A DNA stretch of 64,000 nt from Patescibacteria group bacterium (GTDB lineage Bacteria; Patescibacteriota; UBA1384; 2-12-FULL-50-11): NCBI GenBank assembly GCA_016861245.1, contig BOKZ01000001.1, positions 13,107 through 77,106 of the forward strand, given 5' to 3'. Under the pieces are notes generated by a model. That model made no database searches, was not told the DNA's origin, and saw nothing but the letters and a program-made list of their open reading frames with translations. Shown here in pieces: positions 36,105 through 64,000 of the stretch. The position numbers and the translations under genes are program-made. Each line of letters starts with the position of its first letter. Within the stretch, counting starts at the first letter, position 1.

Positions 36105-36111
36105 GAGAACT

Positions 36112-38073: not shown

Positions 38074-38627
38074 TCTAACTCAGCCAACGCTTCTAGGGTT
38101 TTCTTTGCTTTTTCAACAAAATCGAGCGTCATTAAACGGATTTTGGCAGAAGTCGAAGTTTCGGCCTGACTCGGCAGTACAACTACCTTTATTCCATGTT
38201 TTTCAATTTCTTTAATTTGCTTTGGTGAGTAGCTTCTTTCAGTTGCTACTAGGATGTCCGGCTTAAAAACATTAATTAACCCATCTTGATAATACTCATC
38301 AGCGATCGTAACGTAGTCGACGTGGCGCAAATGTGCGAGTGTTTCGATCCGCTCTTGCTCGGGAACGATTGGACGTCGAGGCCCTTTGCGGCTTTGCACC
38401 CATTTGTCACTGTCAACAGCGACGATCAATACGTCTCCTTGTTGTTTTGCTTTTTCGATATATCTTGCGTGACCAATATGAAGTAAATCGTACGTTCCAA
38501 GTACTAATACAACTTTCAAATTAAGCTTCTTGAGCGCATCTGTAATCTCACCAAGTTTCTCGTGTTTTTTAATAAACTTCTTATCGAAATTTGCACCGGG
38601 TCCAAAGACATCGCTAAGGTTTGCCAT
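38070..38627 (-). CDS. Cytidylyltransferase-like nucleotidyltransferase (HldE domain II / TagD family)
   Basis: GTYDLLHIGH HxGH motif. LIVAVDSDKWVQSRKGPRRPIVPEQERIETLAHLRHVDYV matches RfaE/HldE domain II (LIVAVNSD..KGDSRPVNPLEQR). Overlaps the dCMP deaminase stop by 4 nt. Confidence 0.65.
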   Translation of the reverse strand: MANLSDVFGPGANFDKKFIKKHEKLGEITDALKKLNLKVVLVLGTYDLLHIGHARYIEKAKQQGDVLIVAVDSDKWVQSRKGPRRPIVPEQERIETLAHLRHVDYVTIADEYYQDGLINVFKPDILVATERSYSPKQIKEIEKHGIKVVVLPSQAETSTSAKIRLMTLDFVEKAKKTLEALAELE

Positions 38628-38690
38628 CTTGGTTGTATCCTAATCGAATCTTTAACTTCGTCAAGAAAATTTGCGGGTGACCCGCAATGT

Positions 38691-39494: not shown

Positions 39495-39580
39495 TAAGCC
39501 TAATGTATGTTTGAGTCAAAAAAGGATCAAGTCTAAAAAAATTGAGTAAAATTACCCACCATCAGGTGGGTATTTATCAG

Positions 39581-39653
39581 TGGACCGTTGGGGATTCGAA
39601 CCCCACACCTCCGCAGTGCAAATGCGGCGCTCTACCAAATGAGCTAACGGCCC
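39581..39653 (-). tRNA. tRNA-Ala (anticodon TGC)
   Basis: Cloverleaf GGGCCGT/ACGGTCC acceptor, anticodon loop TTTGCAC, T-loop GGTTCGAATCC. No encoded CCA. Confidence 0.85.
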
Positions 39654-40382: not shown

Positions 40383-40895
40383 TTACGCGGCGAAAATAAT
40401 AAACAGACTAATAACAACAACTGCTACTTGTGTTAGCAGCCCTAAAATTTTTGGCACTTGTCGCTGCGTTTCTTCGTTAATATGAATCGAGTCGTGAAAT
40501 TTCTGTTCTTGCGAGAAAAACGGTAAACGGCGAAGCGTTCTATTCCAAAACGGTACGTTGTCCAGCAAATCCGGTAACACAGCACCCACCGCGCCCCAAA
40601 GCATCACGCTCCCAACTTCAGTTCTACTTTGATAAATCCACATAATTAGCCCAGTAGCTATGAGTACGTCTAAGACTGCTTGGACGAAGATGTGCTTTGG
40701 CCAATCGCGCGCCGATTGATCCGTATCAAATTTAATTTCGTCGTGCGGTCGGTACAAACGCTCCCAGTGCGGGATTGTATCGAGCACATAATGTGACGCC
40801 CAGCCGACACTAAAGGCAATAAGCGGCGCAACTGTAGCGTCTTTTACTAGCGCGCCAATCGCAGCTCCAGTAAGCGCGTGGGGAACGGTAAGCAT
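40383..40895 (-). CDS. Hypothetical membrane protein (possible membrane-bound metal-dependent hydrolase family)
   Basis: Polytopic, His-rich loops (HYVLDTIPHWE). Confidence 0.35.
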   Translation of the reverse strand: MLTVPHALTGAAIGALVKDATVAPLIAFSVGWASHYVLDTIPHWERLYRPHDEIKFDTDQSARDWPKHIFVQAVLDVLIATGLIMWIYQSRTEVGSVMLWGAVGAVLPDLLDNVPFWNRTLRRLPFFSQEQKFHDSIHINEETQRQVPKILGLLTQVAVVVISLFIIFAA

Positions 40896-41384
40896 ATCCG
40901 TATCTTACTATAAAAAATCCCCCGAGACCGGATGGTTCGGGGGGAGCTCGGCTCCACAAGGAGGTTCAAGCTTTGGAAGGGGTGCCCCCAGCGTGCCCAT
41001 TCCTGGACTTCTGGGGGCACCGTCAAGTGCCGGGCACCTCGTAGGTGATCACTCTTCCCTGAGACGGTCTCGTCCTGGGAATAGTCGAAGCACGGATCTG
41101 GCGGCGAGGTCCGATAACGGCGGCGTTTTGTGGACGCCGGTCGCTCGAAAGTGCACTCGAGCCGCTTGGTAGAACAGCCTCCGTACTGTTTCTGGTCGCG
41201 ATCACTTGACGAGGTGCGGAAGTGGTGAGATTCGGCAATGCTGCCGGTACGACGAACTGAATCGCCACTGCAACAGTTAAAGTCGCTATCATACCCTCGA
41301 CTCCCGCATCGGTGAAAGAACACAGTTCATGTCGTGAACCGTGAGAAAATAATACACCCTCTCGTCAAGTATTGGCAATAAAAA

Positions 41385-45065: not shown

Positions 45066-45139
45066 GGGCGATTAGCTCAGCTGGTTAGAGCGCGTCACTG
45101 ATAATGACGAGGTCACTGGTTCGAGTCCAGTATCGCCCA
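45066..45139 (+). tRNA. tRNA-Ile (anticodon GAT)
   Basis: GGGCGAT/ATCGCCC acceptor, anticodon loop CTGATAA, T-loop GGTTCGAGTCC, discriminator A. Confidence 0.85.
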
Positions 45140-45149
45140 CGAATATGCA

Positions 45150-45270: not shown

Positions 45271-46718
<1,448 letters not shown>

Positions 46719-47161
46719 CATAAAAATTCCTGTAGGGATTTTTATGAGAGTTTGTCTTCGCACTCTTCAGAAGAATTGTGCTCAGATCAAACTCTTACCT
46801 TTTGGTAAGAAATTTGTGTCCGACGGCCGAAACCGTCTTCGTCAAACTCTTTGAGATTTAACTCACATAAAAGCCTACTGAACCTTACGAGCGAAATGAT
46901 AAATCATTTCAGCTGACATACTGTTTTGTTTTTTTGGAATTGTTTGGCACTCTCTCGTTTTACCGAGAAAGGGATGGAAATTTGCCAGTCCATCGGCTGG
47001 TTTGTTCTTGTAACCGCGAAATGTTCGCGATTACGCTCCTTTGTTCCCGTGGTAGGTAAAACAAAGGTCCCGCTTGTTAAAGCAGCAAAGTACGTCTGTA
47101 ATTGTACCTATTAGGTTTCCTTGCGTCAACGGCTGCGCAGCGGGTAGGCTAGAAGAAGATT

Positions 47162-48898
47162 ATGAAACTCTTTGAGAACCCTCGACAAGCGTTCTTACTC
47201 CTTGGATTTCTTGTGCTTTCCGCGGCGTTCTACGTAGCAACATACAGTAATAACGCTGAATTTCAGGCCGAAAATGACTTCACACAATACCAGCCCAAAA
47301 CCGCTCAGAGCTTTGTTGAAAGTATCGGGGTTGTAACCCACTTAACCTATAACGACTACAAATCTAACGCCCACTTTGCCGACGTCTATAATAGTCTAGT
47401 TAAGCCGAAAATTCGCGAGCTCGGCGTTCACCACGTCCGACAAAATCTCGCTCACGGCGGTGCTGGGTTTGTTAGCTATTTACAGAAACTACACGAGCTG
47501 AGTAACCCTCCGAATAATTACCCACCAATTCAGTTCTCGCTTAGCGCCACAATTAATCCTACCGACTCGACCAGCCCGATGAACACCTGTTTTTTGCCGA
47601 AAGTTAAATTGCACCTGGTTCCAGGGGTCGTTCCTTGTGGTAACGAGGTCGGACAACCAGTGAGTGTGTCCGTCAAACTCTCAAATATTGAAAACCCAAA
47701 TGAGCCCGATCACTGCTTCAGTTTCGTCTGTAACTACTCGCCATCACCATCCAACTGGTACAAGTACTCACTACAGCAAAACTCCGATTGGCCAGATGAC
47801 GTGCTCGGTGCGGCTTCAAACGCTAAAAGTAAGCTGCTCTCAGATCCGGCAACTGCCAATATCATCACCGTGGCACCGTCGTTCGTTTGGTTACAGTATC
47901 ACCAAAATGAGACGTACAACGGCACAAACTTACGGACGTACCTCAACCCCATTAACGCTAATATCTCGTACGGGAATTCACACCCCTATTGCGGCCTTAA
48001 CTCTGTTTCAACTTGTTTTGCTAACACCGTTCAACACGCCGTCAATCGCTACGCACCTAAGCCGGTTTTCGTTACCGAAACCGGACATTCAACTCATGAA
48101 TATTCAGAAACTCAGCAGGCAAAGTATCTTCTTCGTATCCTTTTCGATTTTTTTGAGCGCGGAATTCCGCGAACGTACATTTACGCTTTTCTTGACGAGC
48201 CATCGGCAGCAACACTTAAAGAACAGAATTTCGGCCTACTAAACGAAGACGGTCGTGAGAAGCCGGCGTATGTGTGGCTTAAAAACACGATCGCATTACT
48301 AAAAGATAGTGGCAGCGTTGGTTTAAAAGCGTTATCGATGCAAATTAGCGGTAATGGCTTGCGTCACTCCCTGCTTCAAAAAAGCGACGGCAGCCACTGG
48401 CTGGCTCTCCAATACGACAAAAGCAACACAACTGACGCTGACGCCACAACTGCGGCAACTATTACCTTCGCTTCTCCAAAGAACGTTGAGTACTACTCAC
48501 CAGCTAGTACAGCCGCGTACAAAACCGAGAGCAGTATTACGACACTCTCAATCTCTGTACCAGATAAAATCACGCTACTGAGAATTAGCGATCCAGTCGC
48601 ACTAAATAGCGGTTCAAACTCTAGTACAACTTCGAATTCCACTACTAACTCAACAACCAAACAATCTACTACCAAGAATTCCGGCAAGGCGAATGATCAG
48701 CCGAACCAGACCGGTCAGACTGAAACAGAGACGGATAGTACCGGATTCGAGCTGAAAGACAACGAGATCCAGCTGACGAAAAACTTAGCTGTAAGTAAAA
48801 ATCTGTTTGCGACAATCTTAATTGTTGCACTTCTCTTCGTTACGGTTGTTATTAGTTGGCTTCGATTGCGCCGAGAACTGCATCAAAAAAAGCCCTAG
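47162..48898 (+). CDS. Putative cell-surface glycoside hydrolase-like protein with C-terminal Ser/Thr-rich stalk and TM anchor
   Basis: N-terminal signal anchor. FVTETGHST resembles a retaining-GH TExG nucleophile motif in a TIM-barrel-like region. ST-rich low-complexity segment then C-terminal TM helix. Confidence 0.35.
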   Translation: MKLFENPRQAFLLLGFLVLSAAFYVATYSNNAEFQAENDFTQYQPKTAQSFVESIGVVTHLTYNDYKSNAHFADVYNSLVKPKIRELGVHHVRQNLAHGGAGFVSYLQKLHELSNPPNNYPPIQFSLSATINPTDSTSPMNTCFLPKVKLHLVPGVVPCGNEVGQPVSVSVKLSNIENPNEPDHCFSFVCNYSPSPSNWYKYSLQQNSDWPDDVLGAASNAKSKLLSDPATANIITVAPSFVWLQYHQNETYNGTNLRTYLNPINANISYGNSHPYCGLNSVSTCFANTVQHAVNRYAPKPVFVTETGHSTHEYSETQQAKYLLRILFDFFERGIPRTYIYAFLDEPSAATLKEQNFGLLNEDGREKPAYVWLKNTIALLKDSGSVGLKALSMQISGNGLRHSLLQKSDGSHWLALQYDKSNTTDADATTAATITFASPKNVEYYSPASTAAYKTESSITTLSISVPDKITLLRISDPVALNSGSNSSTTSNSTTNSTTKQSTTKNSGKANDQPNQTGQTETETDSTGFELKDNEIQLTKNLAVSKNLFATILIVALLFVTVVISWLRLRRELHQKKP

Positions 48899-48909
48899 TT
48901 TCCTAGGGC
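48885..48909 (-). terminator. Rho-independent terminator for Nudix gene
   Basis: On the minus strand, GCCCTAGGAAACTAGGGC hairpin followed by TTTTTTT. It overlaps both convergent stop codons. Confidence 0.5.
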
Positions 48910-49436
48910 TTGGCGAATAGGTCGTGGCGGGCTCGTTTGTGCAAGTGTCCTTCTCGACAGAAAATCTTGCCGTCGCATTTGCGAAAGTGCATCTCGGCCG
49001 TGAACTCATTTCCAGCCAGCAACTGAGCGAACCACAACTCTTCGCACGGCATCATTTCGTGATACGGGATCTCGTCGACGGGGAAGAAACTCGGATCGCT
49101 GAAAACATCTGTGGCGATCGGGATTCCTTCCCATAGGTCAGAGCGGTAGACGTGAACTTCCACATCCGTACAGCGCTCGACGCTAAGACCAGGAACATCC
49201 TGTTTGCTGCCCCAGTGGAAGGTTACTACTCCTCGTTTATCGAGCTCTAAAACCCGAATCCCACCCGACTCTTCTTTCGTTTCTCGGATTGCGCACTCGC
49301 GAATTGTCTCGCCCGACTCTTGCTTGCCGCCGTAACCGCTCCGCCTACCCTTCGTTGGGCCCGATAACGATTTCGGCAGACAGACGACGTTGCCACTGAA
49401 AAGATAGACCAGAGAACAAACTGTTGTAACGTGCAT
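48903..49436 (-). CDS. Nudix hydrolase
   Basis: Nudix box GGKQESGETIRECAIRETKEESGG. Start taken at the Met of MHVTTV. The track ORF extends to 49469. Confidence 0.75.
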   Translation of the reverse strand: MHVTTVCSLVYLFSGNVVCLPKSLSGPTKGRRSGYGGKQESGETIRECAIRETKEESGGIRVLELDKRGVVTFHWGSKQDVPGLSVERCTDVEVHVYRSDLWEGIPIATDVFSDPSFFPVDEIPYHEMMPCEELWFAQLLAGNEFTAEMHFRKCDGKIFCREGHLHKRARHDLFAKP

Positions 49437-49547
49437 CGGTATTCCTCCGTCAGAGCGATTGTTGCTCATTTTTTCCTTCTGTCAAATCTCTCGACTTACC
49501 GAGGAATCTTCGGTACAATTCTCGAGACTCAAGGAGTACCTTACGAT

Positions 49548-49916
49548 ATGAAGAAACGCTGGTCGATCATCTTCGCCAACTCTGTTACCGCCGAAGAGAA
49601 GGCTCAACTCACCAACGAACTCGCCGAACGCCTCAAAGCCGTTCCCGATTCCTACAACAACAATGCCGAGCTCAGATTCTCGGAGGGAGCCTTGCCGTTC
49701 ACGCTCACGGACGTCGTCAACGTTATTCCCGCTTCGAAAATCCGAGCAATCACGCTCGACACTCGACACGACGGACCCCAACTTTCTTTACAGGGCGGTG
49801 TGAAGATCTGTTGGGCAAAGGGCGCCATCATCGAGTGCGAATTCGACGGTAACGACAACGAAGCACTGGTTCGAGAATTCGATTCCACCGTCAAGTTGTC
49901 CGAAAACTGCGGCTAG
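49548..49916 (+). CDS. Hypothetical protein (122 aa)
   Basis: AAGGAG SD 8 nt before the ATG at 49548. The track ORF starts at 49431 without an SD. Followed by a terminator. Confidence 0.4.
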   Translation: MKKRWSIIFANSVTAEEKAQLTNELAERLKAVPDSYNNNAELRFSEGALPFTLTDVVNVIPASKIRAITLDTRHDGPQLSLQGGVKICWAKGAIIECEFDGNDNEALVREFDSTVKLSENCG

Positions 49917-49937
49917 CTTTCCGCCTCGTCCTCTCTT

Positions 49938-49960
49938 GCGCCCACCCGGGCGCTTTTTTT
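49938..49960 (+). terminator. Rho-independent terminator
   Basis: GCGCCCACCCGGGCGC hairpin followed by TTTTTTT. Confidence 0.65.
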
Positions 49961-52900
49961 ATTGTAGGACTTCTGGTTTTCGACGTAGTATTAGCCAGAG
50001 TGAGACACTAGTAACCGTAAGAAGCGTTGCGAGAATCCCGATCCGAACCCAAAGATCAACCTTTTTTTGTTCAGCTGCCGTCTCTTCTTTTGTAGTATTC
50101 TTAATAATTAAGTCTGTCACGCTGGAAACGACGCTACCGTTCAGCTTCCAGCTCGGCCCGCCGCCCTGATTCCCGCCTTGGTTGCCCGATCCACCGCCAC
50201 CCGTGTTTTTTTGGAAAGTAAATGTTAGCTGTTTTTCGACAACATTGCCGGCAGCGTCACGAGCTTCAGCTTTGAGATTGTGACTGCCGTTAGTGAGTTT
50301 CAAGTTTTTTGTGTTCATATTTACCGTACAGGTACCGCTTGTGATCGCACTGCTGTATGTGCAACCACCAAATCGAACACCGTCAACATAATAGTCAGCT
50401 CTGGTTACACCGACATTATCAGCGACGGCGCTAATAACCTTAATAGTGTTACCCGAGTAAATCGAACCGGCCACTGGTTGTGAAATCGTAAGCGTCGGGG
50501 CGGTCTGATCGGCCTGGGAATTACCAGAACCAGGATCGTTATTTGTGGCGACAGCGTAGGTGACTGGAGTCGTACAGCTCTCATTACTCCACAACGCCTC
50601 ACTCGCGAGCGACTCAAGATTTAAACTATCCAGCATCGATCTGACGCAGACAATATACTTCGTGTTATTTACCGGAGAGCTAATTCCAATCGTTGGGCTT
50701 AGTGTTTGAGTATCTGTCCAGCCCCCAATTGCTGTTTGCGCCCCAGTGGAACTAACGCTTCGCAGTTGATACTGTAGCGCTGCCTGATAGCTAAAGTAGT
50801 CGGTATTCGTAGTAATCGTTACTGAGAGCTCGGGAGTTATTACAGAATCGGTGCTGGCAAGCACGGTCGGTTGTGTTGCTTTGATCGTACGAACACCTGC
50901 AGCAGATGGGTTAAGTTGGACGATACCGCTTGAGGCGGCCGCCGATGACGAAGAAATTGTGTAACTATTAGGTTCAAAAAGCGGTTCGGTGGCTGAAATC
51001 TGGAGTAAATCAGCGTCGTAGCCGAGCGCTTGCCAAGCTGTTAAATCCAGATCAGAAAAAGCCGATGAGTTCGGATCTGGAGGCTCGTATGTTACTTTAA
51101 ACGTCTGACCGGGCAGGTATTTTATAACATTCTGAGTGAACACTTGGGTGCCACCGCGATGAAACTTATACGCACGCACTGTACCGCCTGTAGTGGTTTT
51201 CGGAGCAATGATGTTTTTTTCAAAGACATTTTTAATCATCGTCTCACCCTCAACTGGATTCTCTTTAAGCTCTACAATGTGCGGATACCGTTGGTTGTAC
51301 AACGCAACGTCGTAGCCCTGAGCAGCCATGTTCTGTACCTGTTGGTACATCTGATCATAAAGCGGAGCGAAAAAGCCTGATGTCGTGATCGGTTCGTCAA
51401 AGAACACCGACTCTCGACAGGTTAAGTAGTTATTGGTGTAGCGATTATACATACCACCGTGGTTAGAGATACAGGTACCTACCGGGTTTTCTATAACGTT
51501 ATTACGCACCTGCAAACCCGAAACCCAATCGTCCGCCATAATTCCCATAAACGGGGAGAATGCCGGCACTGTAGAATTTTTTGTTACCAACTCCCAAATA
51601 CCGTAAGAGCGCTCAAAATACATCTGCGGACTGTGGAGATAGTTCTCCTCGATGATGTGGCCGCTTTGCAAAACGCTCCTTCCACCAAGGTTAATCAAAC
51701 CCGTATCTCGGTGAAGCCAGCCCGAATTGTAGATAGTATTTTTTCGGATGATGTGATCGTTACCGCTTACAATTACGCCATGACCAGCAAAATCCCTAAT
51801 TGTATTTCCCTCAACCAGTATCCCGACCTGCTCTTTATCTAGCCACAAGGTGGTTCGCCCTCGTCCGGCGTACAGGTCGATATTTTCGATTAAATTATTT
51901 TTAATAACATTATTAGTTGGTGCGAGCGTCTTCATAAAATTACCGCCGTTGATCGCGATCGCTGACGACGCCACTGGCGCGTCTAAATCATGTAGATAGT
52001 TGTCGAGAATTTGTAGTTTTGTATTCGGTCGGTATTCGGTAGTAAAGGCGTTACCTCCCCAGCGAACTTCATTACCACGAAATACGACGTTACTAACAGT
52101 AAGATTGACGTGGAAGGCTCGACTTTGAAATTTCTCCATCGTAAAACCTTGCCAGATAAAATTACTTGCCCCGGCCAATACAACTTCATTAACAACGGGA
52201 ATGTAAATTGTATCGGAGGAGTTAAGCGCCGCACCTAAATTAACTTTTAGCTGCTTAGTGGTCTTGTCAAAATGGAACTCTTTTTCAGATAGAAGTTTAC
52301 TCGAACCCTGGATCCAAAAGAGCTCGCCAGCGGCGACGTTGTTTGGTAATGGCGTCGAAAGGCGAATTTCGCGCGAATCTGTATCGATAGATAATACATC
52401 CTTATTTTCCAACCAGCGCCAAAGACCTGCTTTATCATAAATCGATACCTTAAGTCCCGTTTCTCCTGCAAGTTGGTTAATCGCACTAGCGTCTTCGACG
52501 CGATATTTAATAACGTCTTTGACCGCCGCTTGATCGGCTGCTACGTACATAAACCGCCCCGCGTACGGATCGGCTACATTCTTTGTTGGTGGAGTCCAGT
52601 TTGGATAACGGGCAGGTACGAGACGGGTGTTGTTGTGATAAATAAAGTCAAACGTAGCGTTCTCTGCTGGAGTGCCGACTAAACTGGTTTGGTACGTCGT
52701 GCCGGATTCAAGTGTTAAATCTTTCAGCGCCAAGCTTCCAGTGATAATCGGCTTCTCACCAGGGAAGTTGGTAACCATGTTCGGCGCCTCGACGGTACCA
52801 CTGTCCTCGGCTGAAAACGACAACGAATTAGTTAAATTATATTCGCCGCCACGCACCAGGATCTTTGAGCCGGGCAAACCAGCAGCGCGTACCGAATCGC

Positions 52901-53096
52901 GAGCTTTTTCGATAGTTCTAAACGGTGCGTCGATCGTGCCTGTGTTACTATCGCTCCCCGTCGGAGAAACAAAGAATACCGGGCCCACCCCACTTGCGTT
53001 GAATCCACCGCTAAACCAAACAAAAGCCGCAAGGACTGCGCCTATTAAGCCGACGAGCATTGCTTTGTAATAGTGCTTTTTTAAGAGCATGTCCAC
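49959..53096 (-). CDS. Large (1045 aa) cell-surface protein with right-handed parallel beta-helix and Ig-like domains
   Basis: N-terminal TM/signal anchor. PbH1-like repeats (GNTIRDFAGHGVIVSGNDHIIRKNTIYNSGW, NNVIENPVGTCISNHGG). Ig-like Thr/Ser-rich domains. Gly-rich linker then C-terminal TM helix. Confidence 0.5.
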   Translation of the reverse strand: MDMLLKKHYYKAMLVGLIGAVLAAFVWFSGGFNASGVGPVFFVSPTGSDSNTGTIDAPFRTIEKARDSVRAAGLPGSKILVRGGEYNLTNSLSFSAEDSGTVEAPNMVTNFPGEKPIITGSLALKDLTLESGTTYQTSLVGTPAENATFDFIYHNNTRLVPARYPNWTPPTKNVADPYAGRFMYVAADQAAVKDVIKYRVEDASAINQLAGETGLKVSIYDKAGLWRWLENKDVLSIDTDSREIRLSTPLPNNVAAGELFWIQGSSKLLSEKEFHFDKTTKQLKVNLGAALNSSDTIYIPVVNEVVLAGASNFIWQGFTMEKFQSRAFHVNLTVSNVVFRGNEVRWGGNAFTTEYRPNTKLQILDNYLHDLDAPVASSAIAINGGNFMKTLAPTNNVIKNNLIENIDLYAGRGRTTLWLDKEQVGILVEGNTIRDFAGHGVIVSGNDHIIRKNTIYNSGWLHRDTGLINLGGRSVLQSGHIIEENYLHSPQMYFERSYGIWELVTKNSTVPAFSPFMGIMADDWVSGLQVRNNVIENPVGTCISNHGGMYNRYTNNYLTCRESVFFDEPITTSGFFAPLYDQMYQQVQNMAAQGYDVALYNQRYPHIVELKENPVEGETMIKNVFEKNIIAPKTTTGGTVRAYKFHRGGTQVFTQNVIKYLPGQTFKVTYEPPDPNSSAFSDLDLTAWQALGYDADLLQISATEPLFEPNSYTISSSSAAASSGIVQLNPSAAGVRTIKATQPTVLASTDSVITPELSVTITTNTDYFSYQAALQYQLRSVSSTGAQTAIGGWTDTQTLSPTIGISSPVNNTKYIVCVRSMLDSLNLESLASEALWSNESCTTPVTYAVATNNDPGSGNSQADQTAPTLTISQPVAGSIYSGNTIKVISAVADNVGVTRADYYVDGVRFGGCTYSSAITSGTCTVNMNTKNLKLTNGSHNLKAEARDAAGNVVEKQLTFTFQKNTGGGGSGNQGGNQGGGPSWKLNGSVVSSVTDLIIKNTTKEETAAEQKKVDLWVRIGILATLLTVTSVSLWLILRRKPEVLQ

Positions 53097-53116
53097 CCTT
53101 CAGTTTAGTAAACGGT

Positions 53117-53913
53117 CTAGTTGCAATACGGGCAACGGTTTTTAATCAGGAGACCCGAGCTAACGTCTAACACCTTATTTGACTGACAGTACAACTCTAA
53201 GTTGAATAAACTCTTGATCTCGTCAATACTTTCCTCAAGTCGTTCAACAGTCTCGTTACCGAACATGAATATACCGCTCCCCTTGAATCTTTTGGAGTAG
53301 CTAACTGTGCTATTGCAGTCGTCATCAGGGTTGAACCTCTCTATGGTAACGGTAAAATCCCAGGAACCAACCCAAAAATCAGTTGCACCAATAAGATGGT
53401 GAAATCCGTTATCCCTAAAGTATTGCTCATCATATTTCGGTTCGGCGGAAAATACCTCTGAGTTAATCGTGCCATCAAGTTCGTACTTAACGCAAAAAAT
53501 CTCTAGCTGCTCATCACCTTCTGCCAGTATTTGACCTAGGATCCCGCTTCCATCTGGTAAGTAGCAAGCTGGTAGGGTATTCCCACCCTTGGTAACGATG
53601 AGCCAAGTTGGGCGTGTGCGCTGGGAAAAAGGTAGCCCATAAGTCTATTATATTTAGAACGATTCAAGGAAGTAGTTACTGCACTTTCTTGGACTTGTTT
53701 TTCTACATATTCACTAAGAAATTCCTCGCCAAGACGGTCAGCAAACGTCTCTAAATCAACCGAGCCACTTTCGTCAAATGCGCGATAATCAGCAACCTTA
53801 GCAAGGTTACCAACGACCATGCCTGTTATAAACGCAATCGCGACAGCAACTACGACCCATTTCCTAGCCATCATTCTTACAATTAAGGATACACTATTTA
53901 TACTCGGCGGCAA
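53117..53913 (-). pseudogene. Frameshifted gene for a membrane-anchored hypothetical protein (or sequencing error in a T5C3 homopolymer)
   Basis: The track ORF 53536-53913 has a plausible signal-anchor N-terminus, but its last ~30 aa look non-protein-like. A second frame, offset by one nucleotide, opens right after a TAG near 53640. It runs ATG-less for ~175 codons of protein-like sequence (…PTWLIVTKGGNTLPACYLPDGSGILGQILAEGDEQLEIFCVKYELDGT…NRCPYCN) to a stop at 53117. The frames switch near a CCTTTTTCCC run at about 53620. Confidence 0.45.
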
Positions 53914-53922
53914 TAATACGTA

Positions 53923-54252
53923 TTATCCAGACCCGCCAAACCATTTATCAGTCCCCGGGATGATCGATACTAACCACGTCAAGACGTAAGCCCCTATACA
54001 AAAGAATATCCAAAAGTATAAATGGTACAACAGGTAGCGCTTAACTTCTGGGTCTATCGCATGATTTAGAAGAAAGTGACCAAACAAACTAGCTATGGTA
54101 ATTGGTGCGACGTAAAATAAATAAAACGCAAATATAACAAAACCGACAGTAGATGAGTTCTCGTGTTTACCAAAGCTTGAGATTAATAGATATAGCGCTA
54201 ATACACCTAGATTCCAAAGACCAAGCTTAAGCAGGAAAATAGTCATGTCCAA
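53923..54252 (-). CDS. Hypothetical membrane protein
   Basis: Three to four TM helices. Confidence 0.35.
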   Translation of the reverse strand: MDMTIFLLKLGLWNLGVLALYLLISSFGKHENSSTVGFVIFAFYLFYVAPITIASLFGHFLLNHAIDPEVKRYLLYHLYFWIFFCIGAYVLTWLVSIIPGTDKWFGGSG

Positions 54253-54337
54253 AACCAGTCAAGCCGAAACTGATAATTAATACAATCTATCTGACTGTAA
54301 AAACTTACTTTTACCCCTTCGCGCGGCAGCCACACAG

Positions 54338-54931
54338 CTACAGCACTTTGTCGACTAAACCGTAGTTCTTAGCTTCTTCTGGGTTCATCCAGAAATCTCG
54401 CTCGGTATCGGCTTGGACTTTGTCGAATCTCTGGCCGGTGTTTTCGGCTAAAATCTCGTTCATAAGTTTCTTGAGCCGAAGAATCTCTTTGGCTTGAATT
54501 TCGATATCGGTTGCTTGCCCCTCAGCGCCGCCCATTAACTGATGAAGCATTACCCGGGCGTTTGGCAGCGCGAAGCGCTTGCCTTTCTCGCCTCCGGCCA
54601 AAAGAAATGCGCCCATCGACGCCGCCATACCGATACAAATCGTCGAGACATTCGGCTTGATGTGCTTCATGGTGTCGTATATTGCGAGACCGGCAGAGAC
54701 AGAGCCGCCGGGACTATTGATATACATCTGGATATCTTTTGCTGAGTTTTCGGATTCCAAGAATAGTAGTTGCGCCATAATTAAGTTAGCAACGTTGTCG
54801 TCGATCGGACCGCCTAAGAAAATAATACGATCACGCAGTAATCGTGAGTAAATATCAAAAGCTCGCTCGCCGAACTGCGATTTTTCAACCACCATCGGAA
54901 CTAGGTAATTGTTCTGAGGTTCTTTTTGCAT
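54338..54931 (-). CDS. clpP: ATP-dependent Clp protease proteolytic subunit
   Basis: Ser-His-Asp triad context ([17 protein letters not shown]), full-length ClpP homology. Confidence 0.93.
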
Positions 54932-54971
54932 ATGAGTAATGTAAAGTTTGCTTTACAAAAAGTCAATGTAA

Positions 54972-56153
54972 CTACTTTGTCTTTTCGATCAACTCACCAA
55001 GATACTCTTGAAAGTCGTCGTTAGTTGAGAGTTCCCTGCCTTGCTCTTTCGCAAGTTGCGACAAGCCCAGCCCAACACGAACGGAAGCTTCCGCGGCTTT
55101 ACGCCAGTCTTTTTCCATCTGTTCCATCGTGATTTTTCGGCGCTTTAACCAATCTTCAGCCGAGAGATGCCGCTCTTCTAGAAACGTCTGCCAAGCGTTT
55201 TTAGAACGTTCGATCTCCGAGTGGAGTAGCGTCTCCGGCACTTCAACCGTAATACATTTATCAAACTCGGCTAGCCATTCGGCGCGACGCGATTGTTCGT
55301 ATTCGGTCAGGCGTTCTGTTTCTAGCTCAGAACGAATCGCTTGCTTTAGTTGCTCAAGCGTATCGTGACCAAACTTTTTACCAAATTCGTCGTCCAATTT
55401 CGGCAATGTGACTTTATAAACTTCGTCGACTTTCAAAGAAAAATCTACAGTCTTACCGGCCAGCTCTTCATCGTAGTGATCTTTGGGAAATGGTACGGAA
55501 AATTTCTTTTCATCACCCTTCTTCACCCCCGGCAGCTCTTTTTCAAATCCGGGCAAAACACTAGCTTCGCCGAGCATCACCGGAAACTTAGCAGCGCTGA
55601 GTTTATCTTTACGTACTCCACCGATCGATCCTTCGAACGTAATATCGACGCGATCGCCTTTTTGCGCTTTCTCTAACGTTACCGCTTGCTGGGCGTGACC
55701 TTTCCCGAGCGATTCAAGAACCTTATCAATGTCGGCATCGGTAACTGGTTCAAGTTTCGCTTTGCCAAGCTTAATCTTTTCCCAGCCTTTCACCGTAATT
55801 TCAGGACGAATATCAAATGAGAACTGGAGGGTAGAAGGCTTATCTTCCTCAAAGTCGATAATCTCAACTTCTGGATCTTGGATCGGCACAACTTTTAATT
55901 CCTTAACAATCGCATGCCAAGCGTCGTGAACCGCAAGCGAATACGCCTCTTCGCGTAGAGCAGCGGCGTCGATTTGTTTTCGAATAAGCTCCGCTGGAGC
56001 CTTTCCTGGTCTGAAACCTGAAATTTTTACGTTTTTAGATAGCCGCTGCAAGGCATCAGTAAAGAAATCGCCGGTTTCGACCCCGGTTAGTTTAACCTGA
56101 TACTGAATACGAGTTTTTGAGAGAGTTTTGTGAGTTATTTCCATTACAACCAA
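54972..56153 (-). CDS. tig: Trigger factor
   Basis: N-terminal ribosome-binding GFRPGKAP motif, FKBP-like middle domain, tig-clpP gene order. Start may be the Met of MEITHK at 56144. Confidence 0.82.
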   Translation of the reverse strand: MVVMEITHKTLSKTRIQYQVKLTGVETGDFFTDALQRLSKNVKISGFRPGKAPAELIRKQIDAAALREEAYSLAVHDAWHAIVKELKVVPIQDPEVEIIDFEEDKPSTLQFSFDIRPEITVKGWEKIKLGKAKLEPVTDADIDKVLESLGKGHAQQAVTLEKAQKGDRVDITFEGSIGGVRKDKLSAAKFPVMLGEASVLPGFEKELPGVKKGDEKKFSVPFPKDHYDEELAGKTVDFSLKVDEVYKVTLPKLDDEFGKKFGHDTLEQLKQAIRSELETERLTEYEQSRRAEWLAEFDKCITVEVPETLLHSEIERSKNAWQTFLEERHLSAEDWLKRRKITMEQMEKDWRKAAEASVRVGLGLSQLAKEQGRELSTNDDFQEYLGELIEKTK

Positions 56154-56230
56154 GTATAACGATTTAACAGAGAAAAAGGAACCCTCTGAAGAGTTGATTT
56201 CCTTCTGTTATTTTGGCATTTTAAATATAC

Positions 56231-59200
56231 ATGGAGGGGAAAACTTTTCATCGCCTTGATGGAGTCTATCGATTGGTAGCGGATCCTGTTATCCGCCAAC
56301 GGGTTGGACGTGCCGGATTATTTACGACGGTACTACTGGTAGTTTTTGGGCTGGTTACTTCGGCTGCACTGCCACAATTTACGCTTGGTGAAACCGGCTC
56401 CGCTTCGGCCAACCGCTTATGGTCCAGCGGCGCCGAGCTTAATACAACAACAGCTAATGTGGAAATAACAAGCACTTCCGGTACAGTGTCGATTAATAGT
56501 TCAACCAAGCGTTCGGGTGACTATTCGTTTCGTGCTAATCCGACATCAAGTACCGGTATTTTTACAAAGATATTTGCTAACTCAAACCAGTCGAATAAAT
56601 TTTGGTTTCGAACGTACGTCCGTATCGCTGATGACCCAAGCGCCGATACATATATCGTTCGTATTGGTAATAGCGGCGGCGGCAAGATAAGCGTTCGGCT
56701 AACAACTACGAGTACGCTCCAGCTACGCAACGAGGAAGATAATACCAATATTGGCTCCGCTTCTTCTGCTCTTTCGGTTAATACTTGGTACCGTGTTGAA
56801 GTTTACGTTGACACAACGACACTTTCTTCGACCGATGCCGAACTACGGCTCGACGGTACGTCTATCTCCTCTTCAACAGCAGAAAACCTAGCTTCCGGTA
56901 TTGATCGTCTAACTTGGGGCTCAACTGCAACCGGCACAACAGATCTGTACTTTGACGATATCGCGATCAACGACTCGACCGGGCGGGCCGTAGATAACTG
57001 GCCGGGTGAAGGTCGTATTGTCCATATGCACCCGAACGCTGACGGCAGCAACACCGCCTGGATCGGCGATCCGAGCGATACCAACGATTACGACGATGTT
57101 GACGAAGTTACGCCTAACGACGATACAGATTTTATTCGCTCTCAAACCAACAACCAACTCGACGACAATAATCTAGAAGCTGCAACGAGTGCCGGTATCG
57201 GCGCTAACGACGCCATTAAGCTTGTCTCAGTGGGAGTTCGTATTCGTCCGTGTGGAAACGCCTCAGGCGGTGGACCTGCCTGCCCTCCAGCAGAAATTGA
57301 TATTAACTGGGAGGCACGTATTACTGGTGGGGGTAACACCGAACAAAGCGGTTCGATCGCTATCTCCGATGCGAGCGGCTGGATAACAAACGACGATGAT
57401 TCGGCAAAATTGAACAAAATCACACTTTACGATCTGCCTGGTGCTAGTACAGCGCCGTGGACAGTTGCAGAACTCGATTCAGCTCAAATCGGTGTTGCTA
57501 ACCGTGATTCCAGCGGTACCGGTTTTCGAGTCAGTACGACGTGGCTACAAGTCGAATACGTCGACCGCAGCGGCGGGAGGCTTATTTCAAGCGGATTTGA
57601 GCTGAACTCGGCAACAGCCGGAATGGAAGTTTCGGCAGTTACCAACACTCCAGCTATTAACAGCACCACATTCAGAAGCGGCGCCTACGCACTTCAAACT
57701 GAAAACGGCGGCGGTCAAGAATACGCTCGCTTTTACTTTGAATCAGCCAACACCAACGGCGACTATTACTTACGAGCGTATCTAAACATCGCCACTTCCT
57801 TTAACAACTCAACCGCAACAGTTCTGTCGCTGCTTGATACTAGTAACTTACGGCGAGCCTACCTGAAGCTTACGACCACAAATACGCTCGAATTATGGGA
57901 CGAAGACGGCCAGATCGGCTCCGCTTCATCGGCGCTCAGCACTAGTACTTGGTACCGGATCGAGCTTCGTCTTAACACCGTCCCTAGTGGTGGCTCGCAT
58001 GTTGTTGATGGGCGTATCGACGGCGTATCGTTTGCTAGTAGTAGTACTCGAAACGTCGGTACCGGTGTAGCCAGGATCGGTCTTGGCGTAAACGCTAGCG
58101 ACAATATGGAAGCAAGCGCCAATACCCAAGGCAGTTTAATTTGGGACGATATTGCCTTAAATAAAGGTATCGGCGCCACACAAAACACCTGGCCAGGCGC
58201 GGGTTCGATTATCCATTTACGACCAGACGCCGTCGGTGTTTCGACTAGTTGGACACAAAACGGGTCGTGTGCGGTGAGTAACTTCGGTTGTGTATTAGAA
58301 GTGACCCCGAATGACGGAACAAACTATGTTTCCGAGACTACTTCTGATGATGTTGACGATTATAATATCGACAACTCACCCCTATCTGGTTCGGATGTAG
58401 TCAACCTAGTTTCAGTTGGGGTACGATTCCGAACCAGTTCGGCCACCCAGGAGGATTTCAGAGTTCGCCTAAGAGAAGCTTCGACTGGTATAGCTATCGA
58501 AAGTAATACTCTCTCGCCAGCCTCTACAACTTGGACGACTAATGCCACTGCCGATCCAAAACTCTACCCACTCACGGCATATACTCGACCAGAACTCCCA
58601 ACTATTTGGACTGATACCCAGCTCGACACTGCACAGATAGGTATTCGCGATGTATTAAGCAGCTCCGGAACTGTACAGGTAACAGCAATGTGGCTACTCG
58701 TTGATTACAGCCCCCCAGCAACGATCGTTATTTCTGGCACCTGCGACCAGTATAACCGCACAACCGATTGTACCGACGACGGCTCGAATCAAATACGAGT
58801 AGCTGTTAACGGATCGCTACAAGCGCAAGTTGATACCACTGTTGACGGTGCCTGGGCGATCTCCGGCGTAACCCAACCATCAAGCGGCGATATTATTACC
58901 GTCTTTATTGACGGCAACGCCGATACGAATGAAGCGGTGGCCGTAACTAAATACGACGGTACGGGAGATATCAGCGGGATTGTTCTTTACCAACGACATT
59001 TGACGCTTGGCTCGGACGACAACCCAACGTTAAGTAACGCAGACATCGATGCCTACGATAACTCGGTGTCGGGCGACGAAGATATCTTTTTTGATGTCGA
59101 CGCCAACGACGACTTAACCGTTGATGCAGTAAGTACCTACACAGACGAGTATTTGTATGTGAAATCTGGAACAACGTACCGACCGGGTTCTGGTGGTAGT

Positions 59201-62200
59201 GCCAACGTTAATACTACGCATATCGAGATAGACGGTACGCTGCAGGCTGATAGTAATGCTCTGAACATTAACGGTAATTGGCAAAATGATGGGACGTTCA
59301 CGTCTAACACAAGTACGGTTACTATGAATTCAACTTCGACCGGCCGGACGCTAGCCGGGGCGATGACCGGAAGCTCTGCGTTCTACGACTTAACATTCAA
59401 CGGTTCTGGCGGCGCCTGGAGTTTCTCGGCAGCCGCAGAAACCGATCGAGACTTTATCATTACTGCTGGTAGTGTTACCGCTCCGAGCGGAAATTTAACA
59501 GTTGCTCGCAACTTTACCAATAACGGCACATTTACGCACAACTCCGGCACAGTCGTTCTCGATACAACAACCACCGCCACCATCACGAGCGCGTCCGGCG
59601 GTACAACCTTTAATAACTTCACCTCAACGGCGGCAACTAAAACAATTCAGTTCACGAAGCATACCACCGGCACTCCAGTGTTCACATTTGCCGGCACGTT
59701 CACCATTACCGGAACCAGCGGTAACTTAATCAACGTCTATTCGGATACTAATGGTACGCAGTGGAAAGCTCACTTCAATAGCAACCAGACCAGTGTCACG
59801 TACGCCAATATTCGAGACGGGGGCTGTAACACCGGTACGGCCAACGTGTTTCTCGGCACGGATTCGACCAGCGCCGGTAACAACGATACTTGTTGGGTCT
59901 TCCCGATTAACCGCCTTTGGTCAGGCGGCGCTGAACTGCAATCAGCAACGGCCGGAGTGGAAACTAACTTTAACGACGGGTCGTCACAATCAATTAGTAC
60001 GAGCATCAAGCGATCCGGTGAGGCGTCATGGCGAGTTAATACTACTTCATCGCTCTCGGCGTTTAATAAGTATTTCGTTAATACACCAACTCAAGGTAAA
60101 TATTGGGTGAGAATATATCTTTATATCGCTACTTCTCCGAGCGCTCGCCACAACATTCTTAACCTAAACGGCGCAGCTAGACGTATCGGTGTTCGGTTAA
60201 ATACGAGCAACCAATTAGAACTGTGGAATGAAGAAGATAACTTGCAAATTGGTAGCGCTAGCTCAGCCCTCTCTACCGCAACTTGGTATAGAATCGAGCT
60301 GCACGCCGATACCACAACACTATCCTCCACTTCGGCAGAATTACGGTTAAACGGTTCAACGACTGCAAGCGGAACTGCCAACCTTGCTGCAGCATTTGAC
60401 CGTATCCAGTTTGGTGTGATGGATACGAGTTCAACATCCGACTTATACTTTGATGATATCGCCATAAACGGACCGTCAAGTGCTAGTAATAACTGGCCTG
60501 GCGAAGGCAAGATTGTCCATATGCAGCCGAACGCCGATGGCGATAACGTCGCATGGGCCGATTCGGGTGGTAACTCTATTGACTATGACGAAGTTGACGA
60601 GATACCCCCCGACGACGACTCAACGTACATTCATAGCTCGTCGGCAGGAAACCTAGAAGACCTTAATCTAGAATCTGCGTCGAGTGCTGGAATTGGCGCT
60701 AGCGATACAATTACCGCAGTCAGCGTCGGCTTACGTTTTCAGGCCTGCAATTCAGGAGGACCCGCTTGTCTTGTAGGCGCGGGCGACAACTATAAAGCAC
60801 GGCTTAAGGCGACGGGTGGCGGAACCGTCGAAGAGTCGGCATCGATTAACGCCGATAACGGCGCTGGTTACGCGACAAACCGAAATAGCGCCTCAGCGAA
60901 TGCGAACCTTTACCCACTCACACTCTTAGATCTGCCCGGCTCGAGCGTAACCAAATGGACACCATCTGATCTCGATACCGCCCAGATCGGCATGCGACAC
61001 GACACGTACGAGAACGGATTTCGAACAACAACGATGTGGCTCTTGGTCGAGTATATCCCTGTTACCAATGTTACTGGTACCTGTGATCAGTACGACCGAA
61101 CGACTGACTGCGTCGATGATGGATCGAACCAAATAAAAGTCGCTGTTAACGGAACACTCCAACCCGGCGCAGATACAACCGTCGACGGTTCGTGGTCGGT
61201 TGGTATCACACAGCCAAATACCGGCGACATCATTACGGTTTTCATCGACGGTAACGCCGATAATAACGAAGCGGTAGCCGTTACTAAATACGACGGTACT
61301 GGTGATATTACTGGCGTTCTTCTATACCAACGCCACTTAACGATCGGTTCAGACGATAATCAAACAATTACTAACGCCAACCTTGCTAGCTACGACAACT
61401 CAGTGTCTGGCGATGAAGATATATTCTTTGACGTCGATGGAAATAACGACTTAATAGTAGATGCGGTTGGAACATACACCGACGAGTATTTGTTTATTAA
61501 GACAGGAAACATATATCGCCCTGACTCTTCTAGCAGTGGGAACGTTTCGGTAACGCACCTGGAGATAGACGGAACTATTACAGCCGACGGCAACGCATTC
61601 TCAATTAATGGCAACTGGCAAAACGACGGAACGTTTAGCGCGGGGACCAGCACTACAACTTTCACATCCACGACCACCGGCCGAACAATTGCTGGCACCA
61701 TTAGCGGTACCACCGGCAAATTCTACAACTTAATATTTAACGGCACAGGCGGTGAATGGACAAATTCCGCGGCGCTAGAAGTAGCGAACGATTTAACGAT
61801 GACAGCAGGAACGTTAGCCGGAACTAATAACGTCACTGTCGTCGGCCACACACAAGGTACAAGCGGCGTAATAAACCGAACCGGCGGTACTTTCAAACAA
61901 GGGGCAACAGCATCAAAGAACTTCGGCACAACGAGCGGCACTACCGCTTGGACGTTTAGCGATCTCACCTTCGCAAATGATCTCGGGATCTGTACGGGTA
62001 TCACTTATACCACTCAAACTGGCGGAACCGGCGGTATTACCGTGTCTGGGATTCTACGAGTCGGCGAATCTGGTGACGGCGTTGGTTGTACTACTACACT
62101 TAACGCTGGTGACCGGACCTGGACCCTCTCTGGTATTACCGGTGATCCGTTCCAACTATTAGCTTCACCAGCCGGAAGCCTGACGGCAGCCACTTCTACG

Positions 62201-64000
62201 TTTTCCTACACCGGCAACGATGGGTTAGGTAATACGACTATCCAATCAACTACGTACTACAATCTAACGATTAATAACTCTGCCGAAACCTTTGTGCTCG
62301 AAGGTACAACTAATGTGGGCAATGATTTAATGATCACCAACGGCACTCTTGACACCACTACAAGTAACCACAGTATGAGTATCACCAGAGACGTGTTAAT
62401 CGCTAATACGGCAACCGCCACTTTTCGAGCTCGGGGCTCAACGATCACCGTCTCGCGGCATTGGTCAAAAGGTTCGAGCGGCGTCTTCACTAGAGATAGT
62501 TCAACGGTTCAGTTGAACGGCGATGGTGAAATTCAGACGGTCGGCGGCGGACAGACACAATTTGAGCATTTGGTAGTTGCCTACTCTGGCAAGACCACGA
62601 CGATGGCGACCTCAACAACGCACGTATTTGGTACCCTGACGGTGAACGAGGGAACCCTAACCTGTAGTATTACCTGTACATTCCAGTTGTTTAGAACCTC
62701 TGGAGCAGATCTCTCTATTAACACTTCGGCTACGTTGACTGGTTCGAATGCGACGTTTCACTTACGCAAGCAGAGCGCCTCAACGGTCACGATCGCAGGC
62801 GCGACTAACTACGGTACGTGGAATATTCTGGCAGAGGCGGATACAACTGGGGTTGTAACGTTTAACGTTGGCGGGGCTATCACTACCAGCGGTTACCTAT
62901 GGGTACGAGCTAATACCAGTGGAACGGGCTCGAACTTCAACACCCAAAACTACGCTGTCAGCGCCAAATATTTCCTACTGGGTGACGCTACGGACAACAC
63001 CGCTATCGCGGCTAACTTCGGATCAAGCAACACAACATTCAATAACGGTACCGGAGATGGGTTCTACGTTGCTTCGAACGGCGGAGCGCACACCCTCAAC
63101 TTAAGTACGTCGTCCACAACCGTCACTGGTAATGTTAAATTTGGAAACGGGACCGGGACAATCACAGTAGACGACGGCAGCTCCACTTTCACCTTTGCGC
63201 CATCTTCAGGTACCGCGACGTACTCACCAGATGGGGAGACGCTCTACAATGTCATCGTCAACGGCGGCGCCACCGTTTCGCCAGACGGGGCAGTAATTAT
63301 CGCTAACGACTTAACGATGACCGCTGGCACTCTTTCAGGAACACAAAACATCACTGTTAACGGGACAGTTCAGGGTACGGCTGGGATAATCAATTTAACC
63401 GGGGGAACCTTCGAGCAAAGAGTGCTAACGGGCGGTACAAGCAAAAATTTCGGTACTACGTCTGGATCTAACGCGTGGAGTTTTAACGACCTAATTTTCT
63501 CAAACGGCTGCAGTATCTGTGGGTCAGGTGGCCAAATAACAACACAAACAGGTGGGGATGGAGACATCAATGTATCTGGAATTTTAATGGTTGGTAAATC
63601 AGGCGATGGTGATGATATGATACTTGATGCCGGTAACCGAACCTGGAATCTTACCAACGCAAACCATGCCGATCCGTTCCAATTAGTTGGGCCGGCGCCC
63701 AACTTAGTGCCTGCCACATCAACATTTCGTTACATCGGCGACAACGACACCGGATCTGTTACAGTGCAATCGGAAACGTATTGTAATTTAGTGGTTGGTA
63801 ACGCCACAGCTGGCGAAACGTATGTATTAGAGGGAGCGACTAGCACAACTGCGGAGGCATCTTGTGGAGACTTAACAATCAATACAGCTGCGATTGGCTC
63901 AAATACCCTAGATGTCGTTTCCGGCTCTAATTACGCCTTAAACATCGGTGGATCATACACTAATAACGGTAATTTTAACTCACAAAACGGAACAGTTACG
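56231..64000 (+). CDS. Giant repeat-rich cell-surface protein with multiple LamG/ConA-like lectin modules (3' end beyond window; >2590 aa)
   Basis: Manual translation from the ATG at 56231 gives an uninterrupted frame to the window edge (2590 codons, no stop). This is why it is missing from the ORF track. N-terminal signal anchor (GLFTTVLLVVFGLVTSAAL). Recurrent TWYR(I/V)E(L/V)…DLYFDDIAIN laminin-G-like blocks. GT-rich beta-solenoid-like repeats. Internal diverged duplications. Confidence 0.7.
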   Translation, partial: MEGKTFHRLDGVYRLVADPVIRQRVGRAGLFTTVLLVVFGLVTSAALPQFTLGETGSASANRLWSSGAELNTTTANVEITSTSGTVSINSSTKRSGDYSFRANPTSSTGIFTKIFANSNQSNKFWFRTYVRIADDPSADTYIVRIGNSGGGKISVRLTTTSTLQLRNEEDNTNIGSASSALSVNTWYRVEVYVDTTTLSSTDAELRLDGTSISSSTAENLASGIDRLTWGSTATGTTDLYFDDIAINDSTGRAVDNWPGEGRIVHMHPNADGSNTAWIGDPSDTNDYDDVDEVTPNDDTDFIRSQTNNQLDDNNLEAATSAGIGANDAIKLVSVGVRIRPCGNASGGGPACPPAEIDINWEARITGGGNTEQSGSIAISDASGWITNDDDSAKLNKITLYDLPGASTAPWTVAELDSAQIGVANRDSSGTGFRVSTTWLQVEYVDRSGGRLISSGFELNSATAGMEVSAVTNTPAINSTTFRSGAYALQTENGGGQEYARFYFESANTNGDYYLRAYLNIATSFNNSTATVLSLLDTSNLRRAYLKLTTTNTLELWDEDGQIGSASSALSTSTWYRIELRLNTVPSGGSHVVDGRIDGVSFASSSTRNVGTGVARIGLGVNASDNMEASANTQGSLIWDDIALNKGIGATQNTWPGAGSIIHLRPDAVGVSTSWTQNGSCAVSNFGCVLEVTPNDGTNYVSETTSDDVDDYNIDNSPLSGSDVVNLVSVGVRFRTSSATQEDFRVRLREASTGIAIESNTLSPASTTWTTNATADPKLYPLTAYTRPELPTIWTDTQLDTAQIGIRDVLSSSGTVQVTAMWLLVDYSPPATIVISGTCDQYNRTTDCTDDGSNQIRVAVNGSLQAQVDTTVDGAWAISGVTQPSSGDIITVFIDGNADTNEAVAVTKYDGTGDISGIVLYQRHLTLGSDDNPTLSNADIDAYDNSVSGDEDIFFDVDANDDLTVDAVSTYTDEYLYVKSGTTYRPGSGGSANVNTTHIEIDGTLQADSNALNINGNWQNDGTFTSNTSTVTMNSTSTGRTLAGAMTGSSAFYDLTFNGSGGAWSFSAAAETDRDFIITAGSVTAPSGNLTVARNFTNNGTFTHNSGTVVLDTTTTATITSASGGTTFNNFTSTAATKTIQFTKHTTGTPVFTFAGTFTITGTSGNLINVYSDTNGTQWKAHFNSNQTSVTYANIRDGGCNTGTANVFLGTDSTSAGNNDTCWVFPINRLWSGGAELQSATAGVETNFNDGSSQSISTSIKRSGEASWRVNTTSSLSAFNKYFVNTPTQGKYWVRIYLYIATSPSARHNILNLNGAARRIGVRLNTSNQLELWNEEDNLQIGSASSALSTATWYRIELHADTTTLSSTSAELRLNGSTTASGTANLAAAFDRIQFGVMDTSSTSDLYFDDIAINGPSSASNNWPGEGKIVHMQPNADGDNVAWADSGGNSIDYDEVDEIPPDDDSTYIHSSSAGNLEDLNLESASSAGIGASDTITAVSVGLRFQACNSGGPACLVGAGDNYKARLKATGGGTVEESASINADNGAGYATNRNSASANANLYPLTLLDLPGSSVTKWTPSDLDTAQIGMRHDTYENGFRTTTMWLLVEYIPVTNVTGTCDQYDRTTDCVDDGSNQIKVAVNGTLQPGADTTVDGSWSVGITQPNTGDIITVFIDGNADNNEAVAVTKYDGTGDITGVLLYQRHLTIGSDDNQTITNANLASYDNSVSGDEDIFFDVDGNNDLIVDAVGTYTDEYLFIKTGNIYRPDSSSSGNVSVTHLEIDGTITADGNAFSINGNWQNDGTFSAGTSTTTFTSTTTGRTIAGTISGTTGKFYNLIFNGTGGEWTNSAALEVANDLTMTAGTLAGTNNVTVVGHTQGTSGVINRTGGTFKQGATASKNFGTTSGTTAWTFSDLTFANDLGICTGITYTTQTGGTGGITVSGILRVGESGDGVGCTTTLNAGDRTWTLSGITGDPFQLLASPAGSLTAATSTFSYTGNDGLGNTTIQSTTYYNLTINNSAETFVLEGTTNVGNDLMITNGTLDTTTSNHSMSITRDVLIANTATATFRARGSTITVSRHWSKGSSGVFTRDSSTVQLNGDGEIQTVGGGQTQFEHLVVAYSGKTTTMATSTTHVFGTLTVNEGTLTCSITCTFQLFRTSGADLSINTSATLTGSNATFHLRKQSASTVTIAGATNYGTWNILAEADTTGVVTFNVGGAITTSGYLWVRANTSGTGSNFNTQNYAVSAKYFLLGDATDNTAIAANFGSSNTTFNNGTGDGFYVASNGGAHTLNLSTSSTTVTGNVKFGNGTGTITVDDGSSTFTFAPSSGTATYSPDGETLYNVIVNGGATVSPDGAVIIANDLTMTAGTLSGTQNITVNGTVQGTAGIINLTGGTFEQRVLTGGTSKNFGTTSGSNAWSFNDLIFSNGCSICGSGGQITTQTGGDGDINVSGILMVGKSGDGDDMILDAGNRTWNLTNANHADPFQLVGPAPNLVPATSTFRYIGDNDTGSVTVQSETYCNLVVGNATAGETYVLEGATSTTAEASCGDLTINTAAIGSNTLDVVSGSNYALNIGGSYTNNGNFNSQNGTVT

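Follow-up and report, generated by a model that had tools for sequence, protein, structure and literature searches.

In ordinary strain-specific frameshift pseudogenes, an indel of one base in a short homopolymer leaves an N-terminal stub and a remainder that has lost its start codon, while sister strains carry the gene intact and no secondary decay is seen. The poly-G/C contingency loci of Neisseria, Haemophilus and Campylobacter are also silenced by a G-run indel in an envelope-associated gene, and contingency tracts are usually at least 7 nt long. In dnaX and in the transposases of the IS3 family, two overlapping frames offset by −1 are joined by one slip into one sensible protein. Here we describe a locus from a Patescibacteria group bacterium, found within a stretch of 64,000 nt (hereafter the window), which can be set beside all three systems.

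The locus has all the traits given above for the ordinary frameshift pseudogene and differs from it in that the affected gene belongs to an uncharacterised and extremely narrow family. With the contingency loci it shares the G-run indel in a gene for a predicted envelope protein, as well as a neighbouring surface gene that was independently silenced by a C-run indel in another strain. However, with 4 nt the run falls short of the 7-8 nt or more of such loci, more distant orthologues do not share it, and a single lineage has departed from four Gs. The overlapping frames resemble those of dnaX and the IS3-family transposases, but the orthologues of our gene are in one frame and the site has neither a canonical slippery heptamer nor a stimulatory structure. 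We conclude that the locus is very probably a genuine and very recent loss-of-function frameshift allele of a lineage-restricted gene for a predicted signal-anchored envelope protein. It adds one more example to a familiar class, the frameshift null alleles specific to single strains, here in an uncharacterised orphan gene, and it reveals no new mechanism.

The disrupted gene occupies positions 53117..53874 of the minus strand. An earlier note, made from the window alone, had described a 125-aa ORF at 53536-53913 followed by a second frame offset by one nucleotide, and both are present. The 125-aa ORF (minus strand) opens with a TTG; its true start is more likely the ATG at 53874, which gives a protein of 112 aa (53536..53874) opening with MMARKW and ending at the TAG at 53536-53538. 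Residues 1-98 of this protein are native: a hydrophobic anchor (W6-L24) is followed by a linker that is helical or of low complexity. The out-of-frame part is confined to the 14 residues at the C-terminus (IPYQLATYQMEAGS), a shorter stretch than the roughly 30 junk-like residues that had been suspected.

The second frame, offset by −1, begins at 53644, right after a TAG at 53645-53647, and stays open as far as its stop at 53117-53119. As had been noticed, it reads as good protein for about 175 residues; we counted 175 codons, and codons 1-126 contain no ATG, GTG or TTG. The window has 103 open frames of 100 codons or more; their median start-less prefix is 7 codons, and the prefix found here ranks second in length. 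The only longer prefix belongs to a frame at 49430-49852 on the plus strand, which by its position we judged to be a shadow frame in the region of a NUDIX gene and a 121-aa gene. The part of the second frame that was once coding, residues 99-252 of the intact protein, is stranded at 53117..53581 (minus strand). In this frame the ATG at 53266 is the first start codon; from it runs a remnant ORF of 49 aa (53117-53266), and this ATG-initiated remnant is all that could be translated from the downstream part on its own. The stop codon lies 20 nt before a GTG at 53096, the distance given in the earlier note; the ATG at 53090, with which the next gene starts in the relatives, follows the stop at 26 nt.

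When the two frames were fused and used as a query, two protein clusters were found at 100% coverage, one of 252 aa (P0001) and one of 262 aa (P0002, 74% identical). The first is essentially from the species of the window. A third intact orthologue, 71% identical, is encoded in the GTDB genome JAJTYJ010000002.1 ('MAG: bacterium isolate DTUPAT3'; locus L016). Both frames of the window are collinear with a single intact protein in all three, as expected from the earlier proposal of one disrupted gene with intact orthologues of about 265 aa. Putting one G back restores a protein of 252 aa that is identical over its whole length to P0003, a protein found on 13 contigs from many unrelated runs.

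With two 90% clusters in 5.8 billion proteins, the family is extremely narrow. When 1.84 billion representatives were searched exhaustively with phmmer, nothing was returned beyond the protein's own single 50% cluster. One GTDB species representative has an orthologue, and no relative of the protein was found in the JGI metagenomes searched. Exact-pattern scans for both alleles gave 0 matches in the GTDB genomes and the JGI metagenomes; the alleles were recovered solely through Logan and ENA protein look-ups.

The DNA alignments place the lesion at a run of three Gs (G3) at 53582..53584 on the minus strand, where every intact allele has four (G4). The window thus carries a deletion of 1 nt, a discrete indel that is not a multiple of three. 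The relatives read CCA AGG GTG GGG AAT ACC and the window reads CCA AGG GTG GGA ATA CCC; in their context, near-identical loci have GGGTGGGGAAT and the window has GGGTGGGAAT. In the protein alignments, the orthologues keep to the frame of the short ORF through ...MGYLFPSAHAQLGSSLPRVG and then continue in the second frame as NTLPACYLPDG... (NTLPACYLPDGSGILGQ). Over about 790 nt, the DNA of the window differs from four of the closest loci (L001, L003, L004 and L005) by one SNP (V66A) and the one missing G. G4 was present in 15/15 near-identical loci that were searched for the motif (L001-L005 and L017-L026), and G3 was found only in L014 and L015. A further four near-identical loci (L027-L030) encode an intact product, P0005, which brings the near-identical loci with G4 to 19.

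The switch had previously been mapped to a homopolymer at about 53620, the CCTTTTTCCC tract. This tract (53623..53632, minus strand) lies about 40 nt upstream of the true lesion. We ruled out its T5 run as the slip site, as the tract is the same in the window and in the intact alleles of L001, L003, L004 and L005, and the orthologues are still in the frame of the short ORF at this point.

The intact protein begins with a short, positively charged N-terminus followed by its sole hydrophobic segment at residues about 6-24, with a Kyte-Doolittle maximum (19-residue window) of 2.36 at residues 7-25. A variable helical or low-complexity linker connects this anchor to a conserved C-terminal domain of about 150 residues; the part lost in the window has 154 residues. 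In the alignments, the domain has six invariant cysteines (C104, C128, C187, C230, C248 and C251), the last two of which form a C-terminal CxxC. From these features we infer a signal-anchored or secreted envelope protein stabilised by disulfides. Because of the six invariant cysteines, including the terminal CxxC, the lost domain would presumably be extracytoplasmic and disulfide-bonded. Profile searches with Pfam, NCBIfam, PHROGs and PADLOC and a sequence search of the PDB gave no significant match to the protein. An AlphaFold2 model built from an alignment of 2 sequences reached a pLDDT of 42.5. Foldseek comparison of this model with the PDB returned weak SecB- or LptE-like matches (best E = 0.018, TM <0.3), which we dismissed as noise.

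The selective history of the two parts was read from a comparison of the G-restored window lineage with its relatives of 71-74% identity (L006 and L016). Downstream of the lesion dN/dS was 0.12, and in the N-terminal anchor and linker it was 0.45-0.54. Since a dN/dS of 0.12 indicates former purifying selection, the lost domain, judged by its substitutions, was clearly functional and constrained in the past. When the downstream part was compared with L001, zero substitutions were found, which means that the deletion is very recent and that no further decay has followed.

The gene sits at the end of a conserved block made up of tig (54972-56153), clpP (54338-54931), a small multi-pass membrane protein and the disrupted gene itself. 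The small membrane protein (53923..54252, minus strand) has 109 aa as an ORF in the window and 103-107 aa in the relatives, and it has no family match. On the other side lies a surface protein gene (49959..53090, minus strand). Its product, 1043 aa long when read from the ATG at 53090, combines a Pel9A-like right-handed beta-helix with a Big_7 Ig domain and a TM segment at the C-terminus. No terminator-like site was found between the disrupted gene and its same-strand neighbours, and promoter-like matches were no commoner than expected by chance. As the gap to the beta-helix gene is 26 nt and has no terminator-like site, the two genes probably form one transcription unit.

The earlier note had stressed the tie to the beta-helix gene, but this adjacency is limited to the species of the window. 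In the lineage of the 74%-identical protein P0002, a second clpP follows the orthologue and the beta-helix gene (831 aa) is found beyond a NUDIX gene. In the DTUPAT3 MAG, the next same-strand ORF is NUDIX-like by its size and position, and no beta-helix gene comes after it. The second clpP paralogue (198 aa; L006:7115-7711 and other loci of this type) stands at the position that the beta-helix gene has in the window species.

A second frameshift was found in the neighbouring gene of a sister strain. Loci L017 (SRR32295233) and L027 (SRR32295234) come from sibling runs and have 0 SNPs relative to the window over 12.8 and 16.8 kb. Near codon 74 of the beta-helix gene, both lack 1 nt of a C3 run, a deletion of their own that changes TTTGCCCGGC to TTTGCCGGC (L017:~7001, equivalent to 52872-52874 of the window). 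The deletion splits the beta-helix gene into pieces of 85 aa and 939 or 965 aa. The probability that two frameshifts fall into two adjacent genes by chance, considering length alone, is roughly 0.02-0.05. That two neighbouring genes with a link to the surface have each been frameshifted on a clonal background hints at relaxed or negative selection on the module, with the small numbers to be kept in mind. A bolder reading would be that the two genes are a dispensable or counter-selected surface module which loses its function again and again through deletions of one base in short G/C runs, in an ultra-small and probably host-dependent bacterium. We consider this unlikely. If true, it would mean fast adaptive remodelling of the surface (escape from phage or host, or adaptation to enrichment culture) and not neutral decay.

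Since a change of 1 nt in a homopolymer is a classic type of error, we considered that the true genome could have G4 and an intact gene, the missing G having been dropped in base-calling, polishing or assembly. The source is seemingly a single contig of 685 kb, so long reads are possible. The 90% cluster that holds the truncated 112-aa product also contains pieces of 111 aa and 49 aa called on a 685,065-nt NCBI contig, which is presumably the window's own. However, the exact truncated product of 112 aa was also recovered by a different assembler (Logan) from two other runs, on contigs DRR258782_33546 (11.5 kb, L014) and DRR258780_18861 (10.6 kb, L015). Over 6339 nt and 5152 nt, respectively, they match the window at 100% identity, including G3. 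Both contigs run across the site unbroken, and no intact allele was recorded from either run. The three observations of G3 (the NCBI genome with the window, DRR258780 and DRR258782) have neighbouring accessions and may come from one study, culture or community, so that all of them could stem from one project. The DRR runs may even be the very reads behind the window, and the evidence for G3 is therefore one of reproducibility and not of full independence. The length of the G-run was read from assembled contigs throughout.

A run of four Gs is also short for a systematic homopolymer error, and the rest of the assembly showed no sign of such errors. In the comparisons with L022 (6820 nt, 0 SNPs), L026 (1591 nt, 0 SNPs), L019 (12759 nt, 1 SNP) and L028 (16757 nt at 46660-63417, 3 mismatches), the missing G was the only indel. 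The alignments with L031 (3020-24411, 4 mismatches) and L038 (32936-45095) had 0 gaps. The missing G is thus the single indel in about 50 kb of the window compared with the nearest independent assemblies. G/C runs of 4, 5 and 6 nt occur 135, 33 and 5 times in the window, and no indel was observed at any other such run in the 50 kb compared. Because G3 was reproduced, near-identical loci have G4 and about 50 kb has no other indel, a one-off assembly or base-calling error, which the earlier note had allowed for, is improbable.

We also looked for other frameshifted genes among the overlapping same-strand ORF pairs of the window and found none. The pairs checked turned out to be complete and separate genes (dUTPase, Fpg, ThyA and DHFR). 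One pair of overlapping ORFs on the minus strand (40383-40895 and 40847-41323, 170 aa and 158 aa) has no clear family and may be a split gene or a case of alternative starts; its second ORF is called as 89 aa or 158 aa in relatives.

The missing base belongs to a G-run in a gene that is predicted to encode an envelope protein and adjoins the gene of a large surface protein, and with the C3 deletion of the sister strain this two-gene module has been knocked out twice. Such a pattern would be expected of a phase-variable contingency gene, in which reversible slipped-strand mispairing turns an envelope protein ON (G4) and OFF (G3). Phase-variable loci have a long hypermutable tract, typically a homopolymer of at least 7-8 nt, and vary in length among close relatives, with ON and OFF states both common. 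Here the tract is 4 nt, which is the longest G/C run of the gene, and the whole 64-kb window contains no homopolymer of 8 nt or more. G4 was present in 19/19 near-identical loci from other runs and G3 was confined to one lineage. No sample contained G3 and G4 together. More distant orthologues do not conserve the tract; L006 reads GGGTTGGAGAA at this position. Phase variation, another of the causes first offered, is for these reasons very improbable, and the third, a recent pseudogene, is the one that fits the evidence.

The full-length protein could in principle still be made from the G3 template by programmed −1 ribosomal frameshifting or by transcriptional slippage. After GGA, a −1 slip of tRNA-Gly onto GGG would put AAU in the A site and give exactly ...PRVG-NTLPAC.... 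Against this, all orthologues are in one frame, so there is nothing programmed or conserved. The sequence G GGA AUA does not fit the pattern of a slippery heptamer, X XXY YYZ, and the downstream 106 nt fold no better than shuffled sequences (z = 0.21). A run of 3 nt is also far too short for slippage of RNA polymerase. We find recoding hardly credible. It is a matter of speculation whether the same slip of tRNA-Gly from GGA to GGG, at a low level, regenerates traces of the wild-type protein. Gene callers divide the region into 111/112 aa and 49 aa, but we give practically no credence to two separate features (a membrane protein of 112-125 aa and an independent downstream gene or non-coding spacer), since both frames are collinear with single intact proteins in all relatives and the downstream frame has no start codon for 126 codons.

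The comparisons also gave a view of the population and of the rest of the window. Near-clonal DNA, with 0-4 SNPs per 12-21 kb (3020-24411 and 46660-63417), was found in runs with many unrelated accession prefixes: SRR7051043, SRR23332755, SRR28201750, SRR32295234, SRR12234142 and DRR258780/DRR258782. Other segments from these samples differ by about 1% (L038, for example). These patterns suggest a strain that is widely dispersed or has been sequenced repeatedly, in a mosaic, recombining population.

On the plus strand, a giant gene starts at about 56240 and runs past the end of the window at 64000; it is called as 3678 aa in L027 and L028. The scarcity of long ORFs in this region is explained by the giant gene that occupies it. 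The window matches these two loci as far as 63417, beyond which it diverges. An internal repeat links 61071-61760 to the region around 58.7-59.4 kb, with about 69% identity between the copies.

The rRNA genes are unlinked, with the 16S gene (45274-46725, minus strand) about 15.5 kb away from the 23S gene (26484-29743, minus strand) and the 5S gene (25927-26044, minus strand). The length of the 23S gene exceeds that of the Rfam model by about 335 nt. A tRNA-Ile gene (45066-45140) adjoins the 16S gene on the opposite strand, and a tRNA-Ala gene (39580-39653, minus strand) stands alone. Beside tRNA-Ala, one cassette has been replaced by another (35136-39579 in the window versus L037:3734-6701 and L040). 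The window, L036, L038 and L039 have thyA, DHFR, a 173-aa ORF, dCMP deaminase, a CTP_transf_like protein and a His_Phos_1 protein. In its place, L037 and L040 have a stretch of about 3 kb that comprises two small ORFs and the genes for a 372-aa dCTP-deaminase-like protein and a DUF3644 protein. The two cassettes look like alternative nucleotide-metabolism modules at one locus.

Coming back to the recent frameshift allele, the most likely route is an ordinary replication slip in the short GGGG run, by which one G would have been lost from the gene of 252 aa. Translation would start at the ATG at 53874 and proceed normally through the membrane anchor and the linker (residues 1-98). At GTG GGA the ribosome would enter the wrong frame, add 14 foreign residues and stop at the TAG at 53536. 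The conserved C-terminal domain of 154 residues would no longer be made, as its open frame has no usable start for 126 codons, and the truncated product is probably non-functional.

For annotation, this means merging the CDSs of 111/112 aa and 49 aa into a single gene that is flagged as frameshifted. As the family is an orphan and extremely narrow, homology-based pipelines would not recognise the disruption, and the intact P0003 of 252 aa can serve as the reference sequence for the family. The allele also provides a clean natural knock-out of a lineage-specific, Cys-rich, predicted envelope protein in an isogenic background. Together with the knock-out of the beta-helix gene in the sister strain, it could help to probe the role of this surface module.
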